Shown: positions 3,401-30,457 of the stretch, in pieces | Layout: every line of letters begins with the position of its first letter | Numbering within the stretch: position 1 is the stretch's first letter | Source of the DNA: an uncultured Gemmatimonadales bacterium | Lineage (GTDB): Bacteria > Gemmatimonadota > Gemmatimonadetes > Gemmatimonadales > GWC2-71-9 | Reading direction: 5' to 3' | Assembly (NCBI GenBank): GCA_963817715.1 | Contig: CAWFPG010000004.1 | Location: 199,673-263,672, forward strand | Length of the DNA stretch: 64,000 bases | Translations under genes and position numbers: made by a program | Notes under the pieces: model-generated | What the model saw: the letters and a program-made list of their open reading frames with translations, nothing else | Database searches by the model: none | What the model was told of the DNA's origin: nothing

Positions 3401-4822
3401 ATGGCATTCCGCACCGAAAAGGACCCGCTCGGCGAGAAGCAGGTGCCGGCAGACGCGCTCTACGGCATCCAGACGCTCCGCGCCGTCGAGAACTATCCCA
3501 TCTCCGGCCTCCGGCCGCTGCCCGCCTTCGTCGACGCGGTGGTGCGGATCAAGAAGGCCGCCGCGCTGACCCACAAGGAGACCGGGCGTCTCGATGCGAC
3601 ACGGGCCGATGCGATCGTCGCGGCGGCCGACGAGGTGCTCGGTGGCCAGTACCGCGACCAGTTCGTGGTCGATCCCTATCAGGCCGGCGCCGGCACGTCG
3701 CACCACATGAACGTGAACGAGGTCCTGGCCAATCGCGCCAACGAGCTGCTCGGCGGCACGCGGGGCAGCTACACGCCGGTGCACCCGAACGACCATGTCA
3801 ACATGGCGCAGTCGACCAACGACGTGATCCCGACCGCGATGCGGCTCGCCTCGCTCGGTGCGCTCCCGGCGCTGCTCGAGGCGATGGACGGGTTGGCGGC
3901 ATCGTTCCTCGATCGTGGCGTGGCATTCGACGGGGTGCTCAAGTCGGGTCGCACCCACCTGCAGGACGCCACGCCGATCCGACTCGGCCAGGAATTCACC
4001 GCCTACGGTCACACCGTGGCGCGGCACCGGGCCAAGCTGGCCCAAGCGGCGACCTGGCTGCTGCCGATGAACATCGGCGGCAGCGCGGTGGGCACCGGGC
4101 TCAACGCCGAGCCGGCGTACCCGGCGCTGATGGTCAAGCACTTGCGAGCGATCACCGGGCTCGAGCTCGAGGTGAGCGAGGACCGGATCCAGCTGATGCA
4201 GTCGATGGGCGACATCGCCACGCTGAGCGGGGCGTTGCGAGCCTTCGTGCTCGACCTCTGCAAGATCGCCGACGACATCCGTCTGCTGGCCTCCGGACCG
4301 CGCACCGGCCTCGCCGAGATCAGGTTGCCCGAGGTCCAGCCGGGATCGAGCATCATGCCGGGGAAGATCAACCCCTCGATCGCCGAGATGGTGAACCAGG
4401 TCTGCTATCAGGCGCTGGGGCTCGACACCACGGTGGCGATGGCCGCGAAGGCCGGCCAACTCGAGCTCAACGTGATGATGCCGGTGATCACCCACAACAT
4501 CGTCTTCGCGCTGCAGATCGTGGCCAATGCGGTGCGAGTCTTCGACCAGCGCTGCATCAGCGGTGTCGAGGCCGACGAGGCGATGTGCGCCCATTGGCTG
4601 GAGCGCTCCCCGGCACTGGTCACCGCGCTGGCCCCCAAGATCGGCTACGCCGAGGCCGCCAAGCTGGCCAAGGAGGCGATCCGGACCGGCCAGACCGTCA
4701 AGGAGCTGGTGGTTGCCAAGCAGCTCCTGCAGGGCCGTGAACTGGAAGACGTGCTCGACCTGCGCGCGATGACGGAGCTGGGCGTGCCCGGCGCGGGAAA
4801 GGGCACAGCGGCCGGCGGGTGA
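3401..4822 (+). CDS. aspA: aspartate ammonia-lyase (class II fumarase/aspartase superfamily)
   Basis: N-terminus RTEKDPLGEKQVPADALYGIQTLRAVENYPISG is aspartase-like. Carries the superfamily signature GSSIMPGKINP. Confidence 0.8.
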   Translation: MAFRTEKDPLGEKQVPADALYGIQTLRAVENYPISGLRPLPAFVDAVVRIKKAAALTHKETGRLDATRADAIVAAADEVLGGQYRDQFVVDPYQAGAGTSHHMNVNEVLANRANELLGGTRGSYTPVHPNDHVNMAQSTNDVIPTAMRLASLGALPALLEAMDGLAASFLDRGVAFDGVLKSGRTHLQDATPIRLGQEFTAYGHTVARHRAKLAQAATWLLPMNIGGSAVGTGLNAEPAYPALMVKHLRAITGLELEVSEDRIQLMQSMGDIATLSGALRAFVLDLCKIADDIRLLASGPRTGLAEIRLPEVQPGSSIMPGKINPSIAEMVNQVCYQALGLDTTVAMAAKAGQLELNVMMPVITHNIVFALQIVANAVRVFDQRCISGVEADEAMCAHWLERSPALVTALAPKIGYAEAAKLAKEAIRTGQTVKELVVAKQLLQGRELEDVLDLRAMTELGVPGAGKGTAAGG

Positions 4823-5994
4823 GTGAGCCGGTGGGGCGGTGGCGGCAGCTGACGCTGCTGGCCACCGTCGAGCTCCTGGGGATGTCGGTGTGGTTCGCCG
4901 CCAGTGCCGTCAAGCCGGCGCTGGCGGCGAACCTTTCGCTTTCGGCGGCCCAGACCGGTTGGCTCACCTCCGGGGTGCAACTCGGCTTCGTGCTGGGCAC
5001 CCTGCTCGCCGCCGTGCTCAACCTCGCCGACATCGTCCCGGCGCGGCGCTATGTCGCCGCCTCGGCCCTGATGGCCGCGGTGGCCAACGCCGGGCTGCTG
5101 GTCGCCCCCGATTTCGCAACGGCAATCACCACCCGGATCCTCACCGGGGCCGCGCTCGCGGGGGTGTACCCGCCGGCGATGAAGATGGCGGCGACCTGGT
5201 TCCGGCAGGGGCGCGGTCTCGCGATCGGCACTGTGGTCGGGGCGCTCACCGCCGGCAAGGCGATCCCCTACCTGCTCGAGGGCCTCGGCACCCTCGATCT
5301 CGCGCGGGCCGTGCTGGTTCCCTCCGGGGCCGCGCTGGCCGCCGCGGTGCTGGTCGGTGTCGGCTATCGCGACGGGCCCTATGCCTTCCCGGCACGGCCG
5401 TTCTCCTGGGGGCTGACCCGGGTGGCGATGGCCGACCCGACCGTCCGGCGGGCCACCGCCGGCTATCTCGGCCACATGTGGGAACTCTATGCCTTCTGGG
5501 CCTGGATTCCCGGCTTCCTCGCCGCCTCGCTGGCGGTCCACGGCCGCTCCAGTGGACCGGCCAACCTGTGGGCCTTCGCAGTGGTCGCGATCGGGGCTGC
5601 CGGGGCGGTGTGGGGTGGGATCGCCGCCGACCGGATCGGTCGGCCGGCAGTGGTGCGCCGTGCGTTGGTGGTGAGCGGCGCCTGTGCGCTCCTCTCCCCG
5701 TTCCTCTTCAGCGGTCCGCTACCGCTGTTGGTGGTCGCCACGCTGATCTGGGGAGTCGCGGTGATCGCCGACTCGGCCCAGTTCTCGGCGATGGTGACCG
5801 AGCATGCCGCGCCACACGCGGTCGGCACCGCCCTCACCCTGCAGACCTCGCTCGGCTTCCTGCTCACGATCGTCACCATCCAGGGGGTCCCGGCAATGGC
5901 CGCGGCGCTGGGATGGCGGTGGGCGTTCGCGGCCCTGGCGTTGGGGCCGCTGGCGGGTCTCTGGGCGGTGCGCCGGGTCGCCCGCACCCCCTAG
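4819..5994 (+). CDS. MFS transporter
   Basis: 391 aa with about 12 hydrophobic segments. GTG start overlaps the aspA stop (GTGA). Confidence 0.7.
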   Translation: MSEPVGRWRQLTLLATVELLGMSVWFAASAVKPALAANLSLSAAQTGWLTSGVQLGFVLGTLLAAVLNLADIVPARRYVAASALMAAVANAGLLVAPDFATAITTRILTGAALAGVYPPAMKMAATWFRQGRGLAIGTVVGALTAGKAIPYLLEGLGTLDLARAVLVPSGAALAAAVLVGVGYRDGPYAFPARPFSWGLTRVAMADPTVRRATAGYLGHMWELYAFWAWIPGFLAASLAVHGRSSGPANLWAFAVVAIGAAGAVWGGIAADRIGRPAVVRRALVVSGACALLSPFLFSGPLPLLVVATLIWGVAVIADSAQFSAMVTEHAAPHAVGTALTLQTSLGFLLTIVTIQGVPAMAAALGWRWAFAALALGPLAGLWAVRRVARTP

Positions 5995-6019
5995 CGGAGG
6001 GCCTCCTCGAGGGTCGCCC

Positions 6020-6040
6020 CTGTCGGGGGGACCCCGACAG
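6020..6040 (+). terminator. GC hairpin after the MFS gene (CTGTCGGGG-gga-CCCCGACAG), no T tail
   Basis: Perfect 9-bp stem read directly, 26 nt after the stop at 5994. Confidence 0.4.
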
Positions 6041-6053
6041 CCGTCGGGTACCG

Positions 6054-6065
6054 CCGACTATATTC
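6054..6065 (+). promoter_or_regulatory. CCGACTATATTC motif containing a TATATT -10-like hexamer; putative leaderless promoter of the Rrf2 gene
   Basis: AT-rich hexamer at 6059-6064 ends 8 nt before ATG 6073, with no SD in between. The identical 12-mer occurs at 49918-49929 in front of uvrB. Confidence 0.35.
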
Positions 6066-6072
6066 TTCGACT

Positions 6073-6528
6073 ATGCGAGTCACTACTTGGACGGAGTATT
6101 CATTGATCATCACCCTCCACCTCGCCCGGCAGCGGGGTGAGGGTGGCGGGCCCACCGCCGCCCGGGAACTGGCCGAATCGGAGCGGCTCCCGGGCGACTA
6201 CGTCGAGCAGATCCTCCTCCGGCTCCGCCGGGCCGGGATCGTCTCCTCGGTACGGGGAGCCAAGGGCGGCTATCGTCTCGCCCACGAGCCCGACAAGGTC
6301 AGCGTCTTCGACGTGATGACCGCCTCCGAGCGGCAGACCTTCCGGTCGAACTGTGAGGATCACCGGATCGACGGCCTGCGCTGTGACCCGGGGCAGTCGT
6401 GCACCATCCGACCGATCTGGACGGAACTCCAGAACCGGATCGACGGTTTCCTTCGCAGCGTGACACTCGCCGACATGATGCAGAGTGAAGCCGCAGTGCA
6501 GGAACTGGTCACCCTCGGCGGTTCCTGA
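6073..6528 (+). CDS. Rrf2-family transcriptional regulator
   Basis: 151 aa. N-terminal wHTH pattern TEYSLIITLHLAR...ELAESERLPGDYVEQILLRLRRAGIVSSVRGAKGGYRLA, typical of Rrf2/IscR-like proteins. Confidence 0.8.
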   Translation: MRVTTWTEYSLIITLHLARQRGEGGGPTAARELAESERLPGDYVEQILLRLRRAGIVSSVRGAKGGYRLAHEPDKVSVFDVMTASERQTFRSNCEDHRIDGLRCDPGQSCTIRPIWTELQNRIDGFLRSVTLADMMQSEAAVQELVTLGGS

Positions 6529-6563
6529 CAGCACCTCCCGCCGGGGGCAGGACGATCACGCCA

Positions 6564-7706
6564 GTGCCTCCCGACCTCACCCCACAGCAACTCCAGCGCT
6601 ACGCCCGGCACCTCACCCTGCCGGAATTCGGGCTGGCCGGGCAACAGCGCCTGGCCGGGGCCCGGGTGCTGCTGATCGGCGCCGGCGGGCTCGGCTCACC
6701 GGCGGCGCTCTATCTCGGCGCTGCCGGGGTGGGCGTGCTGGGCATCGTCGACGACGACGTGGTCGACATTTCCAACCTGCAGCGCCAGGTCCTTCACGGC
6801 AGCGCCACCCTCGGCCAGCCCAAGACCGAATCCGCTGCGGCCCGTCTGGCCGACCTCAATCCCGAGGTGCGGGTCGAGCCCCATCAGGTCCGGCTCTCGA
6901 GCCACAACGCCCGCGACATCGTCGGCGGCTACGACCTGGTGCTCGACGGCAGCGACAACTTCCCGACCCGGTACCTCGTCAACGACGCCTGCGTGCTGGA
7001 GGGAAAGCCGCTGGTCTACGGCAGCATCTTCCGCTTCGAAGGCCAGCTCTCGCTGTTCAACGTCCCCGGTGGGCCGTGCTTCCGCTGCCTCTTCGCCGAG
7101 CCGCCGGCGCCGGAGCTGGTTCCCAGCTGTGCCGATGCCGGGGTGCTCGGGGTCCTGCCGGGGATCATCGGCACCCTTCAGGCCCTCGAGGCGATCAAGT
7201 GGATCGTTGGCGCGGGTGAGACGGCGGCGGGGCGACTGCTGCTCTTCGATGCGCTGGCGCTCAGCTTCCGGGAGATCGCGATCCGGCGAGACCCCGCGTG
7301 CCCGGCGTGCGGCGACGACCCGAGCATCGACCGGCTGATCGACTACGAGGCCTTCTGTGGGGTGGCCCCGCCAGGCATGGCGGGGGAGGACCTGGCGGTG
7401 ACCGTGACCGCGCTGTCGGCCGAGCTTGCCGGCACGGCGCCGCCGGTCCTGGTCGATGTCCGTGAGCCGTGGGAACACGAGCTGGCGCAGATCCCGGGGT
7501 CACTGCTGGTGCCGCTCGCCGAGTTGCCGGGTCGGCTGGCCGAGCTGCCGCGCGGGCGGCCGATGGTGACGGTGTGTCATCACGGTGTGCGCTCGGCGGC
7601 GGCGGCGGCGCTGCTCCGCCGGGCCGGCTTCGCCTCGGTGCGGAATCTCACCGGCGGGGTCGAGGCCTGGGCCACTGCGGTGGACCCGGCCATGCGTCGA
7701 TACTGA
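6564..7706 (+). CDS. moeB: MoeB/ThiF-type adenylyltransferase with C-terminal rhodanese domain (MoeZ-like sulfur-carrier activating enzyme)
   Basis: LTPQQLQRYARHLTLPEFG, nucleotide loop IGAGGLGSPAALYLGAAGVG, CxxC pairs (CFRC, CPAC), and a rhodanese tail with CHHGVRS. Confidence 0.8.
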   Translation: MPPDLTPQQLQRYARHLTLPEFGLAGQQRLAGARVLLIGAGGLGSPAALYLGAAGVGVLGIVDDDVVDISNLQRQVLHGSATLGQPKTESAAARLADLNPEVRVEPHQVRLSSHNARDIVGGYDLVLDGSDNFPTRYLVNDACVLEGKPLVYGSIFRFEGQLSLFNVPGGPCFRCLFAEPPAPELVPSCADAGVLGVLPGIIGTLQALEAIKWIVGAGETAAGRLLLFDALALSFREIAIRRDPACPACGDDPSIDRLIDYEAFCGVAPPGMAGEDLAVTVTALSAELAGTAPPVLVDVREPWEHELAQIPGSLLVPLAELPGRLAELPRGRPMVTVCHHGVRSAAAAALLRRAGFASVRNLTGGVEAWATAVDPAMRRY

Positions 7707-7732
7707 AGCGGAAGATCCTGCGGGAGGGAGAG

Positions 7733-7816
7733 TGCCGAAGGGGGGACTCGAACCCCCACGGGCTTGCGCCCACTGCGCCCTGAACGCAGCGCGTCTACCA
7801 ATTCCACCACTTCGGC
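7733..7816 (-). tRNA. tRNA-Leu (anticodon CAG)
   Basis: The reverse complement folds as a type II tRNA. Acceptor GCCGAAG/CTTCGGC, anticodon arm CTGCG-TTCAGGG-CGCAG, long variable arm, T arm GGGGGTTCGAGTCCCCC. CCA is not encoded. Confidence 0.9.
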
Positions 7817-7886
7817 GTGGGCGGACAAGCTAGCCGACCCGGCCACGGAGCGTCAAGCTGACCGCCGCGCCGACTACCTTTCCCGC

Positions 7887-8388
7887 ATGGCGATCCGCAA
7901 GCCCGACGGCGCAGGGGATGACGATGCCCCGTCTCGCATCTCGGTGGCCCGCAACCCCAAGGCCACGCACGATTATCTACATCCTCGACAGCTTCGAGGC
8001 TGGCCTCGTGCTGACCGGGACCGAGGTGAAGGCAATCCGTCGTCGAGGCGCGTCGATCAAGGAGGCGTTCGCACGGCTCAGTCGGGGCGAGGTCTTCCTG
8101 GAGGGGATGCACATCTCGCCCTACGAGCAGGGCAACCGCTACAACCACGCCCCGATGCGGTCGCGCAAGCTGCTGCTCCACCGCCACGAGATCGAGCGGC
8201 TGATCGGGTCGGTGGAGCGCGACGGGCTCACCCTCGTCCCGCTGGAACTCTACTTCCGCCGGGGCCGGGCGAAGATCAAGCTGGCGGTGGCTCGCGGCAA
8301 GAAGGCCCACGACAAGCGCGAGACGCTCAAGCGTCGCATCGCCGAGCGCGAGGCCGCCCGGGAGGTGTCGGTGCGGAGGCGTCGGTGA
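7887..8388 (+). pseudogene. smpB: SsrA-binding protein SmpB, frame broken as assembled (1-nt insertion near 7977)
   Basis: The N-terminus MAIRK...[13 protein letters not shown] is in the frame of track ORF 7764. The rest, [21 protein letters not shown]...LLLHRHEI, is in the frame of ORF 7918. The join is GAT TAT c TAC. Total length 502 nt, i.e. 3n+1. Confidence 0.85.
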
Positions 8389-16074: not shown

Positions 16075-21346
<5,272 letters not shown>

Positions 21347-21350
<4 letters not shown>

Positions 21351-22301
21351 CCACCGCGCGCGACCCGGCCTTCATCGCGGGACTCCGCGAGCGGCTCGCC
21401 GGGACGGTGCGCGACGCCGAGCCGCTGGGCCGCTGGTCGACCTACCGGATCGGTGGGCCGGCGACGGTGGTCTTCCCGGCGAACGCCGAGGACGTCGCGA
21501 TCGCGCTCCGGCACGCCGGCGAGGCCGGGGTGCCGTGGTTCGCGCTGGGGCTCGGCAGCAACCTCCTCTTTCCCGACCACGGCCTCGACGCCCTGGTGAT
21601 CCGGATCGGCAAGGGACTCGATCGCCTCGATCAGGACGGCGACCGCTGGCGGATCGGCGCAGGGATGCCGGCGCCGCTGGCGGCCAAGCGGACTGCGCAC
21701 GCCGGCTGGGGCGGGATCCACAAGATGGTCGGGGTGCCCGGCAGCGTCGGTGGCGGGGTCGTGATGAACGCCGGCTGCCACGGCGCCGAGTGGCGCGACG
21801 TGATCGAGTCGGTGGTGGTGGTCGACCCCGACGGGAACGACCGCGTGATCGCCGCGGCGGATGCCGGTTTCACCTATCGCCGGAGCGCGCTGGGCCATGT
21901 GGTGGTGCTCGAGACCACGGTCGACCTCCACCCCGCCGACAGCGCCGCCCTCGATGCCGAGACCGACGAGCTCTATCGCTGGCGCAAGGAGGGCACGCCG
22001 TTCAATCAGCCGTGCTGCGGCAGCGTCTTCAAGAATCCGGTGCTCCCCGACGACTGGGCGCGAGGCGCCGCGGACCAGCGGCCAGTTCATCGAGGCGACC
22101 GGGTGCAAGGGGCTGCGCGAGGGCGGGGCGGAGGTCTCGCCGATGCACGCCAACTACATCGTCAACACCGGCGGGGCCACGGCGGCCGACGTGGTGGCAC
22201 TGATGCGCAACGTGCGCGACCGGGTCGAGGCGCGCTGGGGCGTGCGGCTGGAGCCCGAGGTTAAGCTGATCGGGGCGGCGGGCGGGGCGGGGGAGATTTA
22301 G
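21347..22301 (+). pseudogene. murB: UDP-N-acetylenolpyruvoylglucosamine reductase, frame broken near 22058-22072
   Basis: GTG 21347 overlaps the carB stop. WSTYRIGGPATVVFPANAEDV...LGLGSNLLF...GSVFKNP is in one frame. SGQFIEATGCKGLREGGAEVSPMHANYIVNTGGATAADV is in the frame of ORF 21861. Confidence 0.85.
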
Positions 22302-22333: not shown

Positions 22334-22398
22334 GGTTTGAGGTCGTCTTGTGTGATATGGAGATGGCCAGGATCATTTCCCCCGCTGAGGAGAATGTG

Positions 22399-22698
22399 AT
22401 GGAACACGTCCGATCGATTGCACTAAGTGGAGCCCGCCTTGGCCTTGCCGTTCTGGCGTTGGTCTTGGTCACCGGGGCAGAGGCTCAAGCCACGGACGGG
22501 CAAGGCGGCTGCTCGGCGGCGGATCCGGGTTGGTACTGCGCCACGGCCAGTTCGTTCGAGGGGACGAGCTACTGCATTCCGGGGCAGAGTGGCGGGTGTG
22601 AAACCTGTCATCACACCGGTGACACGGACGACAAGTGCTTCTACTCCGGTGGGCCGAAGCACACGGGGTACAAGGCCGAGGCGTATCCAGGCGCCTAG
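22399..22698 (+). CDS. secreted cysteine-rich mini-protein (99-aa precursor, about 69-aa mature, 6 Cys, one CXXCH motif), hypothetical
   Basis: GAGGAG lies 6 nt before ATG 22399. Sec-type signal MEHVRSIALSGARLGLAVLALVLVTGAEAQA. Mature part TDGQGGCSAADPGWYCATASSFEGTSYCIPGQSGGCETCHHTGDTDDKCFYSGGPKHTGYKAEAYPGA. Confidence 0.55.
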   Translation: MEHVRSIALSGARLGLAVLALVLVTGAEAQATDGQGGCSAADPGWYCATASSFEGTSYCIPGQSGGCETCHHTGDTDDKCFYSGGPKHTGYKAEAYPGA

Positions 22699-22711
22699 TC
22701 GCGGAGCCCGG

Positions 22712-23869
22712 ATGTTCCGCTGCCCAACGGTCGAGGACGCAATGTCACGACTCCGGCTCGCATTGGGGTCATGTGCGCAGGTCTGGACGCGAGCGACGCG
22801 ATGGGGAGGGTCTCTCTGGATCCGGAAACGGCATGGCCCAATATCGGTTCGAGTTCTGCGACTAATGCTCGTCGCGACTCTCGGCTGCGTTGGTTCCGAA
22901 GATCCTGGGCTCATGCCGATAGAGGTCAGTTCGTCTGTCCTATCCAGGAACTCTGCGGTCGGTCGAGCGAACTACCTCATGGCGCGGGGGCCATTCCTCT
23001 GGGTGACGGATGCCAGCGGGGAGCCGTTCCTTCACGTCATCGACCTCCGAAGTGGAGCCCTCCTTCATTCCTTGGGGCGACGAGGAGAAGGACCGGGAGA
23101 GTTCGCGTCGATGGGCAGGCCGCTCCCGAGTCCGGCGAGCCCGTACGGAATGCTTGCCTATGACGAAGACCTGAATCGACTCACCGATATTCAGCTCGAT
23201 TCGACCGGTGACGTCCGCATCGGGGCGTTGGCCAGCTTGCCCACGGCTCCGATGCCATCGGCCCTCACCTCATTCGGGAATGGGTACTTAGGCTGGGTTT
23301 CAGACAGCAATGCCAGGTGGATGATCATCCGTCGTGGCGAGTCCGGGCGGCGGCTTGTCGATGGCCCGCTGCTCGGCAATGGATCCGTGCCGTACTCGCA
23401 GCGTGTCCTCGCATCGGCAAATCTCAAAGTCTGTGTCAAGCCCGATCAAACCAAATTCGCGGTGCTTTACGGTTCGGCCGGACGCATCGAGCTGCACGAT
23501 TCGTCGGCAGCCCTGCTCGATTTGGCGGCGACGCCGGATTCGAGTAATGGCGATTTCGAATTGAAGGATGGAGTGGCCCGCTGGAATAGGCATCGCTACT
23601 ACTACTCGGATTGTGCGGCGACCGATCAATATCTGTTCGCCTTGTTTTCCGGACAGGTTGAGGGGGTGGGAGTCGAGATGGCCTATGCCGGGGATCGCGT
23701 GCAGGTTTTCGACTGGTCCGGGGCGTTGCGCGGTGTGCTTGCGCTGCCCTTTAGGGTCGCTCGGATGGCGGTCGATGCAGAACAGCGGAGCCTGTACGGA
23801 TCGGGCACTGACGGGGAGACGATCTATCGTTTCAGTATCCCCGCGGAGTTCCAGGGAGTTGGCCGCTGA
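22712..23869 (+). CDS. beta-propeller-like periplasmic protein or lipoprotein (6-bladed TolB-like / arylsulfotransferase-like fold suspected), hypothetical; start uncertain
   Basis: Repeated strand-like motifs: FLWVTDASGEPFLHVIDLRSGALLHSLG, YLFALFSG, VQVFDWSGALRGVLALP, and the terminal SLYGSGTDGETIYRFSI. There is a possible signal or anchor RKRHGPISVRVLRLMLVATLGC. Candidate ATGs are 22712 (GGAG upstream), 22742 and 22865. The track ORF from 22427 overlaps the mini-protein gene and is rejected upstream of 22712. Confidence 0.5.
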   Translation: MFRCPTVEDAMSRLRLALGSCAQVWTRATRWGGSLWIRKRHGPISVRVLRLMLVATLGCVGSEDPGLMPIEVSSSVLSRNSAVGRANYLMARGPFLWVTDASGEPFLHVIDLRSGALLHSLGRRGEGPGEFASMGRPLPSPASPYGMLAYDEDLNRLTDIQLDSTGDVRIGALASLPTAPMPSALTSFGNGYLGWVSDSNARWMIIRRGESGRRLVDGPLLGNGSVPYSQRVLASANLKVCVKPDQTKFAVLYGSAGRIELHDSSAALLDLAATPDSSNGDFELKDGVARWNRHRYYYSDCAATDQYLFALFSGQVEGVGVEMAYAGDRVQVFDWSGALRGVLALPFRVARMAVDAEQRSLYGSGTDGETIYRFSIPAEFQGVGR

Positions 23870-23892: not shown

Positions 23893-24606
23893 ATGATTGA
23901 CCGAGCGACCATCATAGCGGTGGTTCTGGTGCTCGGCGTTCTCGGTGTCCGGGCCGTCCGCCATTCGGGATTCACGCAGCCGAGCGCACTGCGGGATGCG
24001 AGCGACATCGCTTCAGGCAAATCCGATCAACGCACACCGTCGGGGGTGAGGCTCTCTCGACTCGATTTGCGGCGTCTTGCCTCGACCGACCTCCTGCTCG
24101 GTGATTCCGCCGCCCCAGTGCCTGTCGTGGTCTTCTCCGACTACTCCTGTGGTTGGTGTGCGAGGTACCAGGCCTCGCTCGACTCGCTATTGGATCGCTA
24201 TCCAGGGATTGTAAGCGTGGTCTTCAGGCCGCTTCTGCTCGACTCTGGCGCCTTGGGCGCCATCGACGTGCATATGGGGGCGGCCTGCGCGGCCGAGCAG
24301 GGTGTGTTCGCGGAGTATCATCGCGCGGCCTACTCGAATCAGCAGGCAGTTGGTACTCGCAACGGCTGGATGAGGATCGGCGAGGCTGCTCCTGTGCCGG
24401 ACTTGAAGGAATTTGAACGCTGCGTGCTGAGCGAACGGTATCGTGAAATGATCGTGGCCAGCACGAATGAGGCCCATCGGCTCGGGTTCGTCACGACTCC
24501 TGCGTCGATCATTGGTCTTCACCCAATTGTCGGCCGCCTGACCTTCACGGTCCTTGATTCCCTGGTGAAGGAGCAGCTCGATCGACTGCGGGCAGGATAC
24601 TCCTAG
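23893..24606 (+). CDS. membrane-anchored DsbA-family thiol:disulfide oxidoreductase (CGWC active site)
   Basis: N-terminal TM segment IIAVVLVLGVLGV. Thioredoxin-fold core PVVVFSDYSCGWCARYQASLDSLLDRYPG...VFRPLLL. C-terminal part GFVTTPASIIG resembles the cis-Pro loop region. Confidence 0.75.
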   Translation: MIDRATIIAVVLVLGVLGVRAVRHSGFTQPSALRDASDIASGKSDQRTPSGVRLSRLDLRRLASTDLLLGDSAAPVPVVVFSDYSCGWCARYQASLDSLLDRYPGIVSVVFRPLLLDSGALGAIDVHMGAACAAEQGVFAEYHRAAYSNQQAVGTRNGWMRIGEAAPVPDLKEFERCVLSERYREMIVASTNEAHRLGFVTTPASIIGLHPIVGRLTFTVLDSLVKEQLDRLRAGYS

Positions 24607-24622: not shown

Positions 24623-24675
24623 GCGCCCCCAGGGGGCGGGGGCGCTGTAGTCCCTCGCTCCCCTCGGGACGAGGG
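24623..24675 (+). terminator. two stacked GC hairpins closing the low-GC cassette (GCGCCCCC..GGGGGCGC; CCCTCGcTCCCctcGGGACGAGGG)
   Basis: Read directly, 17 nt after the DsbA-like stop. No T tail. Confidence 0.45.
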
Positions 24676-24734
24676 TGACGGTGTTCCGGCCGCCACGACG
24701 CAATGTCGGGTATCCCCATCGGAGAGCCCCGCGC

Positions 24735-25645
24735 ATGCGCCGTATCCTGCCTGTCCTGTTCGCCGTCATCATCGCCGCCTGCGGCGGTTCCTCGCCGACC
24801 GGTCCGTCCGGTCCCGGCGGCGGGTCGAACGTCTTCTCCGCCTCGATCGACGGCACGGCCTGGTCGGCGCCGTCGACGGCGATCAGCTCGGCGAGCAACA
24901 CCGGGTCGATCCCGGGTGGGATCCTCTTCACCGGCACCACCACTGTCGGCACCCAGGCGCGGTCGCTGATCCTGTCGCTCGACCGGATCAAGGGACCCGG
25001 CACCTATCCGCTGGGAGTCAACACCGGGACCACCGCGGGCGGCACCCTCACCATGACCTTCGGCTCGGCATCGTGGTGGACCCCGCTCAACGGCAAGTCG
25101 GGCACCCTCACCATCACCTCGCTCACCAGCAGCCGGGTGGTGGGCACCTTCAGCGGTGAGCTGGCCCCGCTGGCGGGTGGCACCGGCAACGTCCACATCA
25201 CCAACGGCACGTTCGATGTGCCGCTCAACCCCGGCTACGCCCCCCGCCGGCCGACGATGAAGGCTCATGGGTCAAGGCGACGATCGGGGGCGCCGACTGG
25301 AACGGGGCGACGGTGATCGGCATCGGTGGCGGGACCGGGACCGCCGCGATCACCGCGACCACCGACGACTATGTGGTGACGGTCACCGCGGGGCCACTCT
25401 CCGGACCGACCAGTGGTCCGCTCACCGATGCCGGCACCGTGCCGATCCGCACGGTGCGGGTCCAGCGCGCCGGCACCACCAATGCCTGGGGTGGACTGAG
25501 CGGTGACGTGGGCACCCTCACCATCACGTCGATCACCGCGACGCGGATGGCGGGGAGCTTCTCCGGCACGCTGGCGCCGATCTCCGGTGGAGGCGCCGGC
25601 CTGGTCGTGCTCAACGGCCAGTTCGATGTGAAGATCGGGCAGTGA
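24735..25645 (+). pseudogene. lipoprotein with an internally duplicated beta-rich domain; frame broken at C6 run 25240-25245
   Basis: Lipobox MRRILPVLFAVIIAAC. Domain 1 ends GTLTITSLTSSRVVGTFSGELAPLAGGTGNVHITNGTFDVPL. Domain 2 (frame of ORF 25313, readable back to PADDEGSWVKATIGGADWNGA) ends GTLTITSITATRMAGSFSGTLAPISGGGAGLVVLNGQFDVKI. Confidence 0.6.
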
Positions 25646-28461: not shown

Positions 28462-29925
28462 ATGCGTCGCCCTGTCCCGATCTCCCTGCTGCTCCTGATG
28501 ACGGCCACCACGCCACTGGTGGCACAGCGGGCCGATTCCGCTGCGGTCGCCCGGCGACAGGTCCGTGTTGCTGCCCAACTGCTGGGCCGGGGAGATTCGG
28601 CCGCCGCACTCGATAGTGTGCTCGCGGCCACTCGGGCCTGGCCGGCCCAGGGGGCGTATCGGGTGATGGCAGCGCGGTTGGCCGCGGCGACCGGCCGTGA
28701 CACGCTGGCGCTCACCCTGCTGCGAGACCTCAATGTGACCGGATATGCCTGGAACGATGCGGCACCGGAGTATTCCCGACTTGCGACATCGCCGGCGTTC
28801 CGTTCGGCAGCCGACGGTTCGCGAGCCAACCAGGCGCCGGTGATCGGCAGCGCGGTCTTCCGGGTCCTCCCCGACGAACGCCTCCATCCCGAGTCGGTCG
28901 CCTTCGACGCCCGAACCGGTCGGGTCTTCGTGACCAGCGTGCGACAGCGCAAGGTGATCGTGCTCGAGCCCGACGGTCGGGTGCGCGACTTTGTCGACTG
29001 CGATGCGGTGCCGCTCGACGCCGTGCTGGGCGTGGCGGTGGATACCACGCGACAGCGGCTCTGGCTCACCTCCTCTCCGATGCCGGAGGAGGACGGTGGG
29101 GATCGTGGCCCAGCCGCGATCGTGGCGCTCGACCTTGACGACGGGTCGCCGCGAGGGCGCTGGACCGTGCCCGACGACGGCCGCGACCACGTGCTGGGCG
29201 AGGTCACCGTCGCCCCTGACGGCCGGGTCTACGCCACCGACTCGCGTCAACCGGTGATCTACCGGGTACCACGCGAGTCGGCTGACGGGGGCACCCTGGA
29301 GGGGAGTGGCTATCACTCACCGGATTGGGTTTCACTGCAGGGGCTCGCCTTCAGTGCCGACGGTGCGCTGGCCTGGGTCGCCGACTGGACCACCGGGCTC
29401 TATCGCATCGACCTGGAACGTGGCGAGGTGATGCCGGTGCGCGGGGCGGCGACCGACTACCTGCTGGGGATCGACGACCTGCTGGTTGCCGGCCCGCGAC
29501 GCCTGGTCGCGATCCAGAACGGGATCGCTCCCCCGCGGGTGATCAGCCTTTCGCTCGACGAGGGCGGCTCGATGGTGACCGACCTCACCGTCCTCGACCG
29601 CCACCTGCCGCTTGCCGAGGAGCCGAGTGGCGGTGTGCTGGTGGCCGGGGCGCTCCTCTACGTGGCAAACGCCCCCTGGGGACACTACCGGGGCGACGGA
29701 AGCCCCGATCCGGCGAAGCCGTTCCCGAAGCCGGTGCTGTTGCCGACTGCCGTTGCCGCGCTGAGCGCCAGGAGCGCCGGCGGTGGCGGACAACGCCCCG
29801 GTCCCGTCAGCGTTCCGGCTGTTCGACCGTCCGTCTATCTTTCCGCCCGTTCCCGGACCCTGGAGCTGGCGGCATGCCGGACTGGTTCGCCCACGAATCG
29901 AGCTACATCGACGACGGTGCCGTGA
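28462..29925 (+). CDS. secreted protein: N-terminal TPR-like helices plus beta-propeller-like (SMP-30/gluconolactonase/LRE-like) region, hypothetical; 3' end doubtful
   Basis: Signal [22 protein letters not shown]. Strand motifs [68 protein letters not shown]. The last ~55 aa are Arg/Ser/Pro-rich and overlap the next gene. Confidence 0.5.
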
Positions 29926-30457
29926 TCGGTGCCGGCACCAAGATCTGGCACTTCTGCCACGTGATGTCCGGCGCGGTGATCGGTGATCGCTGCAGCCTGG
30001 GGCAGAACGTGGTGGTGATGCCGGGGACCCGGCTCGGGAACAACGTCAAGGTCCAGAACAATGTCTCGATCTATGAGGGCGTCGAGCTCGAGGACGACGT
30101 CTTCTGTGGGCCGAGCTGTGTCTTCACCAACGTGATGAATCCTCGCTCGGCGGTCTCGCGAAAGCACGAGTACCGCCGCACCCTGGTCCGTCGGGGGGCC
30201 ACGGTGGGGGCCAACGCCACGGTGGTCTGTGGGGTGACCCTGGGGAGTACGCCTTCGTGGGGGCCGGGGCGGTGATCACCGCCGACGTTCCGGCCTTCGC
30301 CCTGATGGTCGGCGTGCCGGCCCGCCAGCTCGGCTGGATGTGCCAGTGCGGCGAGCGACTGCCCGAGGCGGCCCCCGAGGTCTCCTGCGGTGCCTGCGGG
30401 GCCCGCTACCGCGCTCGATGGCGGCGGCCCTTCGCCAGATCGCGCCGGGGTGGCTAA
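29874..30457 (+). pseudogene. left-handed beta-helix N-acetyltransferase, WbpD-like; frame broken at G4 run 30242-30245
   Basis: [48 protein letters not shown]...FTNVMNPRS...GVTLG | [33 protein letters not shown]. The second part is in the frame of ORF 30257. Confidence 0.75.

Follow-up and report, generated by a model that had tools for sequence, protein, structure and literature searches.

A predicted secreted six-cysteine mini-protein encoded beside a propeller lipoprotein and a DsbA-like oxidoreductase in Gemmatimonadales-like bacteria

A stretch of 64,000 nucleotides from contig CAWFPG010000004.1 of an uncultured Gemmatimonadales bacterium (hereafter the window) contains, at positions 22,399 to 22,698, a small open reading frame (ORF) for a precursor with six cysteines, followed on the same strand by genes for a beta-propeller lipoprotein and a DsbA-like thiol-disulfide oxidoreductase. 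The small ORF is a real gene, because it has homologs, its six cysteines are invariant, its copies show a deficit of nonsynonymous change and its gene neighbourhood is conserved. The reading that we favour, with moderate confidence, is that its product is a mini-protein exported by the general secretory (Sec) pathway and oxidised by the DsbA-like enzyme to a three-disulfide form, which pairs up with the propeller lipoprotein in the cell envelope of its Gemmatimonadales-like host, and that the three genes constitute a mobile operon.

About 20 homologs of the mini-protein were found among approximately 15 billion proteins, and none of them is named. A word-indexed search of 5.8 billion proteins returned two relatives, an exhaustive search of 1.84 billion cluster representatives with a hidden Markov model (HMM) returned 16 sequences at E <= 1e-3, and two further copies came from fetched loci, namely L004, from a Gemmatimonadales metagenome-assembled genome (MAG), and L006. 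The E-values of the best homologs reach 1e-47, and that of the most distant member, P0042, is 3e-4. All family members are singletons that carry at most the label "hypothetical protein". The six cysteines are the only invariant columns of the 19-sequence alignment; strongly conserved are, in addition, G-C-E-x-C, the preceding SGG, the CF after the last cysteine and a G-[YW] near the C-terminus. The mature proteins of the family are 64-71 amino acids long, and all 19 are anionic, with net charges from -2 to -8. In all 21 pairs that can be formed from seven gene copies, the proportion of nonsynonymous differences (pN, 0.26-0.61) is below that of synonymous differences (pS, 0.64-0.88), with synonymous sites saturated in this comparison. 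Two of the checks raised by the sequence-only reading of this DNA that preceded the present analysis, the search for homologs with conserved cysteines and the comparison of synonymous with nonsynonymous change, came out in favour of the gene. Its warning that small genes of this kind are easily missed also proved apt: the mini-protein gene of L005 is absent from the ENA and NCBI gene calls and is present in the Logan copy of the same DNA.

No meaningful match of the mini-protein was obtained in the Pfam, NCBIfam, PADLOC and PHROG libraries, and none among PDB sequences; scans of viral contigs for the mini-protein and the propeller were empty. Metagenome contigs were scanned with the degenerate DNA pattern C-x2-G-x-[ST]-G-G-C-E-x-C, and the candidates were re-screened with the HMM, upon which the matching stretches, at least 120 in number, all turned out to be chance matches.

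The precursor begins with a predicted Sec signal peptide, MEHVRSIALSGARLGLAVLALVLVTGAEAQA, which has two arginines in its n-region, a hydrophobic core and A-x-A at positions -3/-1. The call was made by eye from these features together with the conservation of the cleavage motif, in which A29 and A31 are invariant in close homologs and which at least 70% of the family members retain. The Shine-Dalgarno motif GAGGAG with its 6-nt spacing and the signal peptide ending in AQA had both been pointed out in the sequence-only reading and were borne out here, and so were the richness in Gly, Tyr and Thr (13 Gly, 7 Thr and 5 Tyr in the mature protein), the absence of Met and the single Trp in PGWYC. Two counts had to be amended: the mature protein has 68 residues and not 69, and, while the first four cysteine spacings were right, the last is 9 and not 10, so that the cysteines at precursor residues 38, 47, 59, 67, 70 and 80 form the pattern C-x8-C-x11-C-x7-C-x2-C-x9-C.

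The best AlphaFold2 model of the mini-protein, built on 16 sequences, has a mean predicted local distance difference test score (pLDDT) of 83, with most of the mature region above 90, and describes a small all-beta fold in which the CxxC lies inside a strand. A three-disulfide peptide had previously been listed as one alternative for this protein; it is now favoured by the six invariant cysteines, an even number that counts for disulfides, by the co-encoded DsbA-like gene and by the all-beta model, and the acidic composition rich in Gly and aromatic residues, which is a trait of the whole family, also counts towards it. Together, the predicted signal peptide, the even number of invariant cysteines and the co-encoded DsbA-like gene are what is expected of a generic disulfide-rich secreted mini-protein. 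For the narrower class of inhibitor cystine knots or knottins, defined by I-IV, II-V and III-VI disulfides and the knottin fold, the fold search in the PDB and BFVD gave no match.

The linkage of the three genes is strict. Gene neighbourhoods were inspected at about a dozen loci, and in all seven verified ones (the window, L001, L002/L003, L004, L005/L006, L008 and L009) the mini-protein gene is followed by the propeller gene. A Thioredoxin_4/DSBA gene comes third wherever the contig continues (the window, L004, L005/L006, L008 and L009); in L001 and L002/L003 the contig ends after the propeller. The order holds even for P0042, the most divergent mini-protein, and a contig of the Joint Genome Institute (JGI), known without its DNA, has the same gene sizes, families and order. 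The genes are 1-3 nt apart or overlap in L004, L005/L006 and L008, and all three diverge in parallel, with 30-50% identity between loci. No second copy of the mini-protein gene or of the propeller gene was found within the window, an Rfam scan around the cassette gave no match, and the predicted RNA folds of the spacer between mini-protein and propeller genes and of the region 3' of the DsbA-like gene are no better than those of shuffled sequences (z ~ -1). The coordinates are collected in Table 1.

Table 1. Features of the three-gene cassette in the window and of the five-cysteine peptide genes at sibling loci
Feature	Position	Strand	Basis or remark
Shine-Dalgarno motif GAGGAG	22387..22392	+	Sequence; 6-nt spacer to the ATG
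Mini-protein gene, 99-codon ORF plus stop	22399..22698	+	ORF, translation, homologs, pN < pS in 21/21 pairs; ATG at 22399, stop at 22696-22698, 99-aa precursor
Predicted Sec signal peptide, residues 1-31, predicted cleavage between AQA and T	22399..22491	+	Sequence features and A-x-A conservation; 22492 is the first mature base
Mature 68-aa mini-protein, acidic	22492..22695	+	Net charge -5
CETCH	22597..22611	+	C-E-x-C is the family motif; His lineage-specific (2/19 in the 19-sequence alignment)
5' extension of the 480-aa ORF, non-coding in this frame, overlapping the mini-protein gene	22427..22864	+	Homologous loci; homology starts near the lipobox
NHL/TolB-like six-bladed propeller lipoprotein, BF3164-family-like, lipobox LVATLGC	22865..23869	+	PF15869, homologs, AlphaFold2, Foldseek
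Membrane-anchored DsbA-like thiol-disulfide oxidoreductase, CGWC active site, cis-Pro (TP)	23893..24606	+	Pfam, ortholog alignment
Five-Cys peptide genes, directly upstream of distant TolB_like propellers	L131 97-360; L133 3704-3958; L134 3552-3776		

The second gene lies within a 480-aa ORF (22427-23869) that had been regarded as spurious. This judgement holds for the 5' extension, which overlaps the mini-protein gene, and fails for the bulk of the ORF, the 3' two-thirds of which (from about 22865) are the real propeller gene: in homologous loci the propeller gene begins 3' of the mini-protein stop or shares no more than the final ~35 nt of the mini-protein gene, and homology begins near the lipobox. 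The choice among the candidate starts, ATG 22865, CTG 22856 and ATG 22742, is uncertain. The first of these leaves seven residues before the lipobox cysteine and thus a very short signal peptide, and a start at ATG 22742 would add a second lipobox-like motif, LALGSC. In the source annotation the gene call begins far downstream and yields a 252-aa product.

The propeller of the window matches PF15869 (TolB_like) with E = 1.1e-5 and 25.4 bits, which is below the Pfam cut-off of 29.2. Most of its approximately 30 relatives have PF15869; the name "BF3164 family lipoprotein [Gemmatimonadales bacterium]" is attached to one relative. The AlphaFold2 model is six-bladed (pLDDT 91, predicted template modelling score 0.90), and NHL-repeat domains are its best matches both by profile and by Foldseek; the Foldseek matches examined comprised generic NHL/WD40 scaffolds and no enzyme, and the best sequence matches were likewise free of enzymes. 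The residues conserved in the family match the NHL repeat consensus and do not make up a clear active site, and NHL propellers are typically binding scaffolds. D49, H57, R72, D100, R105, Y247 and W284 form an invariant patch of the propeller. The lipobox cysteine is aligned in 16 of 22 propeller sequences. A pair of cysteines, C190 and C250, covaries perfectly; it is present in 12 of the 22 sequences, and in the loci examined no propeller with a DsbA-like or thioredoxin-like neighbour lacks it. The literature search on the function of BF3164, PF15869 or DUF5128 returned no functional study. It should be noted that L004 carries an extra propeller paralog (4672-5862) between murB and the mini-protein gene, and that the window propeller shares 49.5% identity with this paralog but less, 43%, with the L004 copy that follows the mini-protein gene.

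The product of the third gene is matched by PF13462 (Thioredoxin_4) with 77.1 bits (cut-off 23.2) and by PF01323 (DSBA) with 47.7 bits (cut-off 25.6). Four of its five close cassette orthologs have the active site CGWC, that of L009 has CSFC, and the proline is invariant. In L004, the DsbA-like gene (7345-8072) is split over two frames.

The cassette stands out from its surroundings, with a GC content of 0.62 compared with about 0.70 in the flanks and a low GC content at third codon positions (GC3), without the extreme GC3 of the host. The flanking genes of the window encode proteins with 77-84% identity to their counterparts in L004, the Gemmatimonadales MAG, where the gene order is the same (murB ... 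hexapeptide transferase, DegT, GFO); the window therefore derives from an organism related to that of L004. Elsewhere the neighbours differ by locus, with genes for an extracytoplasmic function (ECF) sigma factor and a PIN protein in L008 and an AlpA-like one in L009. L007 has no mini-protein gene; there, the propeller/DsbA-like pair (6001-7862) sits after a gene for a TonB-dependent receptor; an ORF upstream of the pair (5293-5589, + strand) reads, by eye, like what we take to be a LuxR-type helix-turn-helix protein. The cassette of L005, in a genome of 3.2 Mb, is bracketed by a 300-nt direct repeat with 95% identity and by a second 3' end of murB that still translates as ...LEPEVKVIGRDG... 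up to the stop codon (L005 4400-5267 and 8039-8461). This arrangement suggests that the cassette was inserted downstream of murB with duplication of flanking sequence. A search of the window for att-like flanking repeats gave only a weak, G-rich repeat of 18 nt, which is not significant. Taken together, the three genes are best read as a compact operon that moves horizontally and has been met to date in Gemmatimonadales-like bacteria.

Distant relatives of the propeller (about 28% identity) have a comparable setting. In L131, L133 and L134 a different small secreted peptide with five cysteines is encoded immediately upstream of the propeller; its family, with the motif D-A-C-x4-5-C-C-x2-E-P-x-S-x-C ... 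C, is apparently unrelated to the six-Cys family. A thioredoxin-fold partner adjoins the peptide and propeller genes in two of these three loci: in L133 (5145-7866, - strand) and L134 (4992-7642, - strand) an ECF sigma gene stands beside a gene for a protein of 711-719 aa with a C-terminal AhpC-TSA/Redoxin domain, both convergent with the peptide-propeller pair. The Redoxin domain of the L134 protein has, in the translated copy, the single-Cys motif CAPS, and the protein looks, from its zf-HC2-like N-terminus, its membrane segment and its long repeat region, like an anti-sigma factor. In L132 (2786-6625), three tandem propeller paralogs (DUF5128, unassigned and TolB_like) are followed by a gene for a small, membrane-anchored thioredoxin-like protein (CAEC), and no small Cys-rich ORF was found near the array, which adjoins proteasome-like and AAA genes. 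Judged by sequence, the arrangement recurs across cassette and sibling loci, with peptide and thioredoxin parts that appear to be interchangeable.

In the favoured reading, the 99-aa precursor would be exported by Sec and cut after AQA. In the periplasm, the DsbA-like enzyme of the cassette would join the six cysteines in three disulfides, so that a small, acidic mini-protein with an all-beta fold results, and would probably also form the C190-C250 disulfide of the propeller. The folded mini-protein would then dock on the propeller lipoprotein, resulting in a membrane-tethered two-protein complex of the envelope. The oxidation step is deduced from the co-encoding, the invariance of the cysteines and precedent. 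Dedicated DsbA paralogs share an operon with the arylsulfotransferase AstA in Escherichia coli, Salmonella and Campylobacter (PMC4460558), and in bacteroidetocin loci a dedicated thiol oxidoreductase is required for the Cys-containing peptide toxin (PMC6671954); the DsbL/DsbI-AssT and dsbA2-dsbB-astA operons and the bacteroidetocin loci have served as the models for the step proposed here.

Several observations weigh against this reading. The confident AlphaFold2 model of the mini-protein is the only one, the other four of the five models having pLDDT values of 58-64, and a Foldseek search with it revealed no structural neighbour in the PDB and BFVD. A scan for promoters and terminators around the cassette gave nothing recognisable. 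The DsbA-like gene may serve the propeller instead of the mini-protein, because L007 has a propeller and a DsbA-like gene, and L132 propellers and a thioredoxin-fold gene, with no mini-protein within reach in either case. The contact between mini-protein and propeller is inferred only from the strict gene linkage, the tight spacing or overlap of the genes and their parallel divergence. Lastly, the cassette encodes no component for export across the outer membrane and the family is uniformly anionic, two features that also argue against a classical membrane-active bacteriocin.

As the output of such a complex, an antagonism/protection pair is rated slightly ahead of a thiol-disulfide relay of the thioredoxin-NHL type. 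In the former, the mini-protein would be a Sec-exported, disulfide-stabilised peptide with an antibacterial or other antagonistic action, the propeller would bind it and protect the producer, and the DsbA-like protein would be the folding catalyst. The accessory and mobile character of the cassette would suit such a toxin-immunity system (low GC, varied contexts, the AlpA-like gene of L009, the PIN gene of L008 and the duplication in L005), the extra or orphan propellers (the first propeller of L004, that of L007 and the three in tandem in L132) resemble immunity arrays, pairs of this kind typically have the gene for the binder directly 3' of that for the peptide, and bacteroidetocins set a precedent for a dedicated thiol oxidoreductase. 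However, there is neither an outer-membrane exporter nor a double-glycine leader, the negative charge is shared by all 19 mature peptides, the mini-protein evolves no faster than its partner genes, and no PADLOC or PHROG match and no bacteriocin family among the Pfam/NCBIfam results were found, so that a peptide toxin with its immunity protein is possible and, on balance, unlikely. The more specific identification as a class II bacteriocin or microcin was rejected, as the leader is of the Sec type with A-x-A and lacks a double glycine and as no cassette contains a transporter gene. An antagonistic function would mean a Sec-dependent, anionic, disulfide-rich type of effector in a little-studied soil phylum.

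In the second alternative, a membrane thioredoxin-fold protein, an NHL propeller and a small beta-protein with CxxC would form a split thiol-disulfide relay that acts on envelope targets or as a redox sensor. The pairing of thioredoxin fold and propeller is indeed the most constant one: the partner is DsbA-like in the window, L004, L005, L007, L008 and L009, and the pairing is also made via the small CAEC protein in L132 and via the fusion of Redoxin and anti-sigma parts beside an ECF sigma gene in L133 and L134. The C-x-x-C of the mini-protein is invariant, with Glu after the first Cys in 17 of 19 members; moreover, the sibling peptide has an odd number of cysteines, and the Redoxin domain of L134 has a single one. 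For SOQ1, disulfide exchange has been proposed between the thioredoxin-like motif and a Cys pair in the small C-terminal beta domain at the interface of the thioredoxin and NHL parts (bioRxiv 10.1101/2021.03.16.435614). On the other side, all six cysteines of the mini-protein are invariant and look structural, the partner in the cassette is of the oxidising DsbA type and not of the TlpA/Redoxin type, the covarying Cys pair of the propeller goes with the DsbA-like partner and thereby suggests simple oxidation of a substrate, the mini-protein model is unlike nDsbD-like folds and folds like the C-terminal domain of SOQ1, and a rare mobile cassette would be an odd vehicle for redox housekeeping. 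A relay is thus doubtful. Its most elaborate form, a three-component envelope device or "split SOQ1/NHLRC2", is more speculative still: the free 68-aa mini-protein would use its CxxC to shuttle or sense disulfides between the thioredoxin-fold membrane protein and targets held by the propeller, and in the sibling version the five-Cys peptide and the propeller would be wired to an ECF sigma factor via an anti-sigma factor with a single-Cys redoxin domain at its C-terminus. A redox module would be a bacterial split counterpart of SOQ1/NHLRC2, the mechanism of which remains debated, and, if the sibling version is true, secreted Cys-rich mini-proteins would be redox ligands for transmembrane signalling.

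Two further readings had been raised by the sequence-only reading, and both are very improbable. Methylamine dehydrogenase consists of a Cys-rich light chain with a Trp-derived quinone and a propeller heavy chain, and has a thioredoxin-like protein, MauD. The cassette, with a small disulfide-rich exported protein, a propeller and a thioredoxin-fold membrane protein, resembles the trio mauA/mauB/mauD, so that the mini-protein might be the small subunit of a cofactor-bearing periplasmic enzyme. However, the only Trp is replaced by Y, A, L, H or G in other members, so that there is no conserved Trp pair for a tryptophan tryptophylquinone, and no conserved Trp/Tyr cofactor site; the propeller has six NHL-like blades instead of seven, and its conserved residues fit the NHL consensus without an obvious active site. 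In addition, the cassettes contain no MauE, no MauG-like or radical-SAM (S-adenosylmethionine) maturase and no electron acceptor gene, and no sequence similarity was detected, which makes an enzyme of this kind highly unlikely.

Least probable of all is a small c-type cytochrome with heme bound covalently at CETCH and a distal His ligand. The export of the protein, as of apocytochromes c, and the CXXCH of the window sequence and of P0002, its closest relative, had made this an obvious suggestion. The His of CXXCH is indispensable for attachment and ligation of heme c; the heme reading fails because this obligatory His is present in only 2 of 19 members, namely the two just mentioned, while both cysteines are invariant along with four others. 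The residue after CxxC in the other members is T, F, A, Y, E, Q, V, S, K or C, and the distal His proposed earlier is likewise not conserved in the alignment. There is also no match to a cytochrome family in Pfam/NCBIfam and none by sequence or fold in the PDB, the all-beta model places the CxxC within a strand, and the enzyme encoded alongside is of the oxidising DsbA type. Judging from the alignment, the mini-protein is not a c-type cytochrome, and its CXXCH is a coincidence of one lineage, built on the C-E-x-C that the family conserves. More generally, unless the His is conserved, a single CXXCH in a small exported protein cannot be taken as evidence for heme. A high-potential iron-sulfur protein (HiPIP) had been dismissed from the start, and rightly so, as the n-region has no RR motif (R5 and R13 are apart), the six cysteines are spaced differently and no family match was found.

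Some features of the window lie outside the cassette. The murB gene upstream of it (21314-22301, + strand) is split over two frames, with a break near 22045-22070; the MurB of L004 aligns to 21314-22051 and 22071-22271 in different frames, which corresponds to an indel of 1 nt, so that either the assembly is wrong at this point or an essential gene has become a pseudogene. The gene for the hexapeptide-repeat transferase (29874-30412, + strand) also occupies two frames (29874-30269 and 30242-30412), and this second apparent frameshift hints at an indel-prone assembly; local indel errors in the window are therefore possible. Directly 3' of the cassette are two tandem genes with host-like GC3 (24675-25316 and 25313-25645, + strand). 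Both have internal repeats rich in Gly and Thr and are not present at the syntenic locus of L004, and the first has a sub-threshold match to the NCBIfam Riean_0653 family (48.7 versus 57 bits).

The cassette can be compared with several known systems. AssT and AstA are beta-propellers with an essential disulfide, and in comparison with them the cassette propeller carries its covarying Cys pair. The operons assT-dsbL-dsbI of uropathogenic E. coli and Salmonella and dsbA2-dsbB-astA of Campylobacter (PMC4460558) resemble the cassette in that an extra DsbA-type oxidase is encoded in the operon of its substrate. In contrast to these systems, the cassette has no DsbB/DsbI partner, its propeller is an NHL/TolB-like lipoprotein without a match to an arylsulfotransferase family, and its six-Cys mini-protein has no counterpart there.

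The loci of bacteroidetocins, which are class IIf bacteriocins (PMC6671954), have in common with the cassette a small Cys-containing secreted peptide beside a dedicated thiol oxidoreductase, and both are mobile and patchily distributed in lineages of the Fibrobacterota-Chlorobiota-Bacteroidota (FCB) group. However, bacteroidetocins have a double-glycine leader, an ABC exporter with a C39 peptidase, a protein with five transmembrane segments, four cysteines and mature peptides of 42 aa, whereas the cassette has a Sec signal peptide, no exporter, anionic peptides of 64-71 aa with six cysteines, and a propeller lipoprotein; no sequence similarity was found between the mini-protein and bacteroidetocins.

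SOQ1 of the plant thylakoid lumen and human NHLRC2 unite a thioredoxin-like domain, a six-bladed NHL propeller and a small beta C-terminal domain (bioRxiv 10.1101/2021.03.16.435614; PMC6107167). The cassette has the same three kinds of modules in an extracytoplasmic-type compartment. Nevertheless, it encodes them in three genes and not in one chain, its thioredoxin class is DsbA-like and only the NHL-type fold is common to both, so that the likeness is one of functional analogy.

Propeller lipoproteins of the BF3164/TolB_like family are widespread, abundant in Bacteroidota and without an assigned function. The cassette propeller shares the lipobox and the six-bladed fold with BF3164/TolB_like (PF15869) and DUF5128 (PF17170) proteins and belongs to the family or borders on it; none of the family descriptions found connects these propellers with six-Cys mini-proteins and DsbA-like genes. 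Thus, the BF3164/TolB_like and DsbA-like families are known, and a disulfide-rich secreted mini-protein with a dedicated oxidase is of a familiar kind. New are the undescribed mini-protein family, which has no name, domain model or structure and is sometimes missed by gene callers, its constant association with an NHL propeller lipoprotein, and the sibling version with its anti-sigma-like protein. The strict linkage of mini-protein, propeller and thioredoxin-fold partner provides a first testable handle on the BF3164/TolB_like propellers, which may bind small disulfide-rich secreted proteins.

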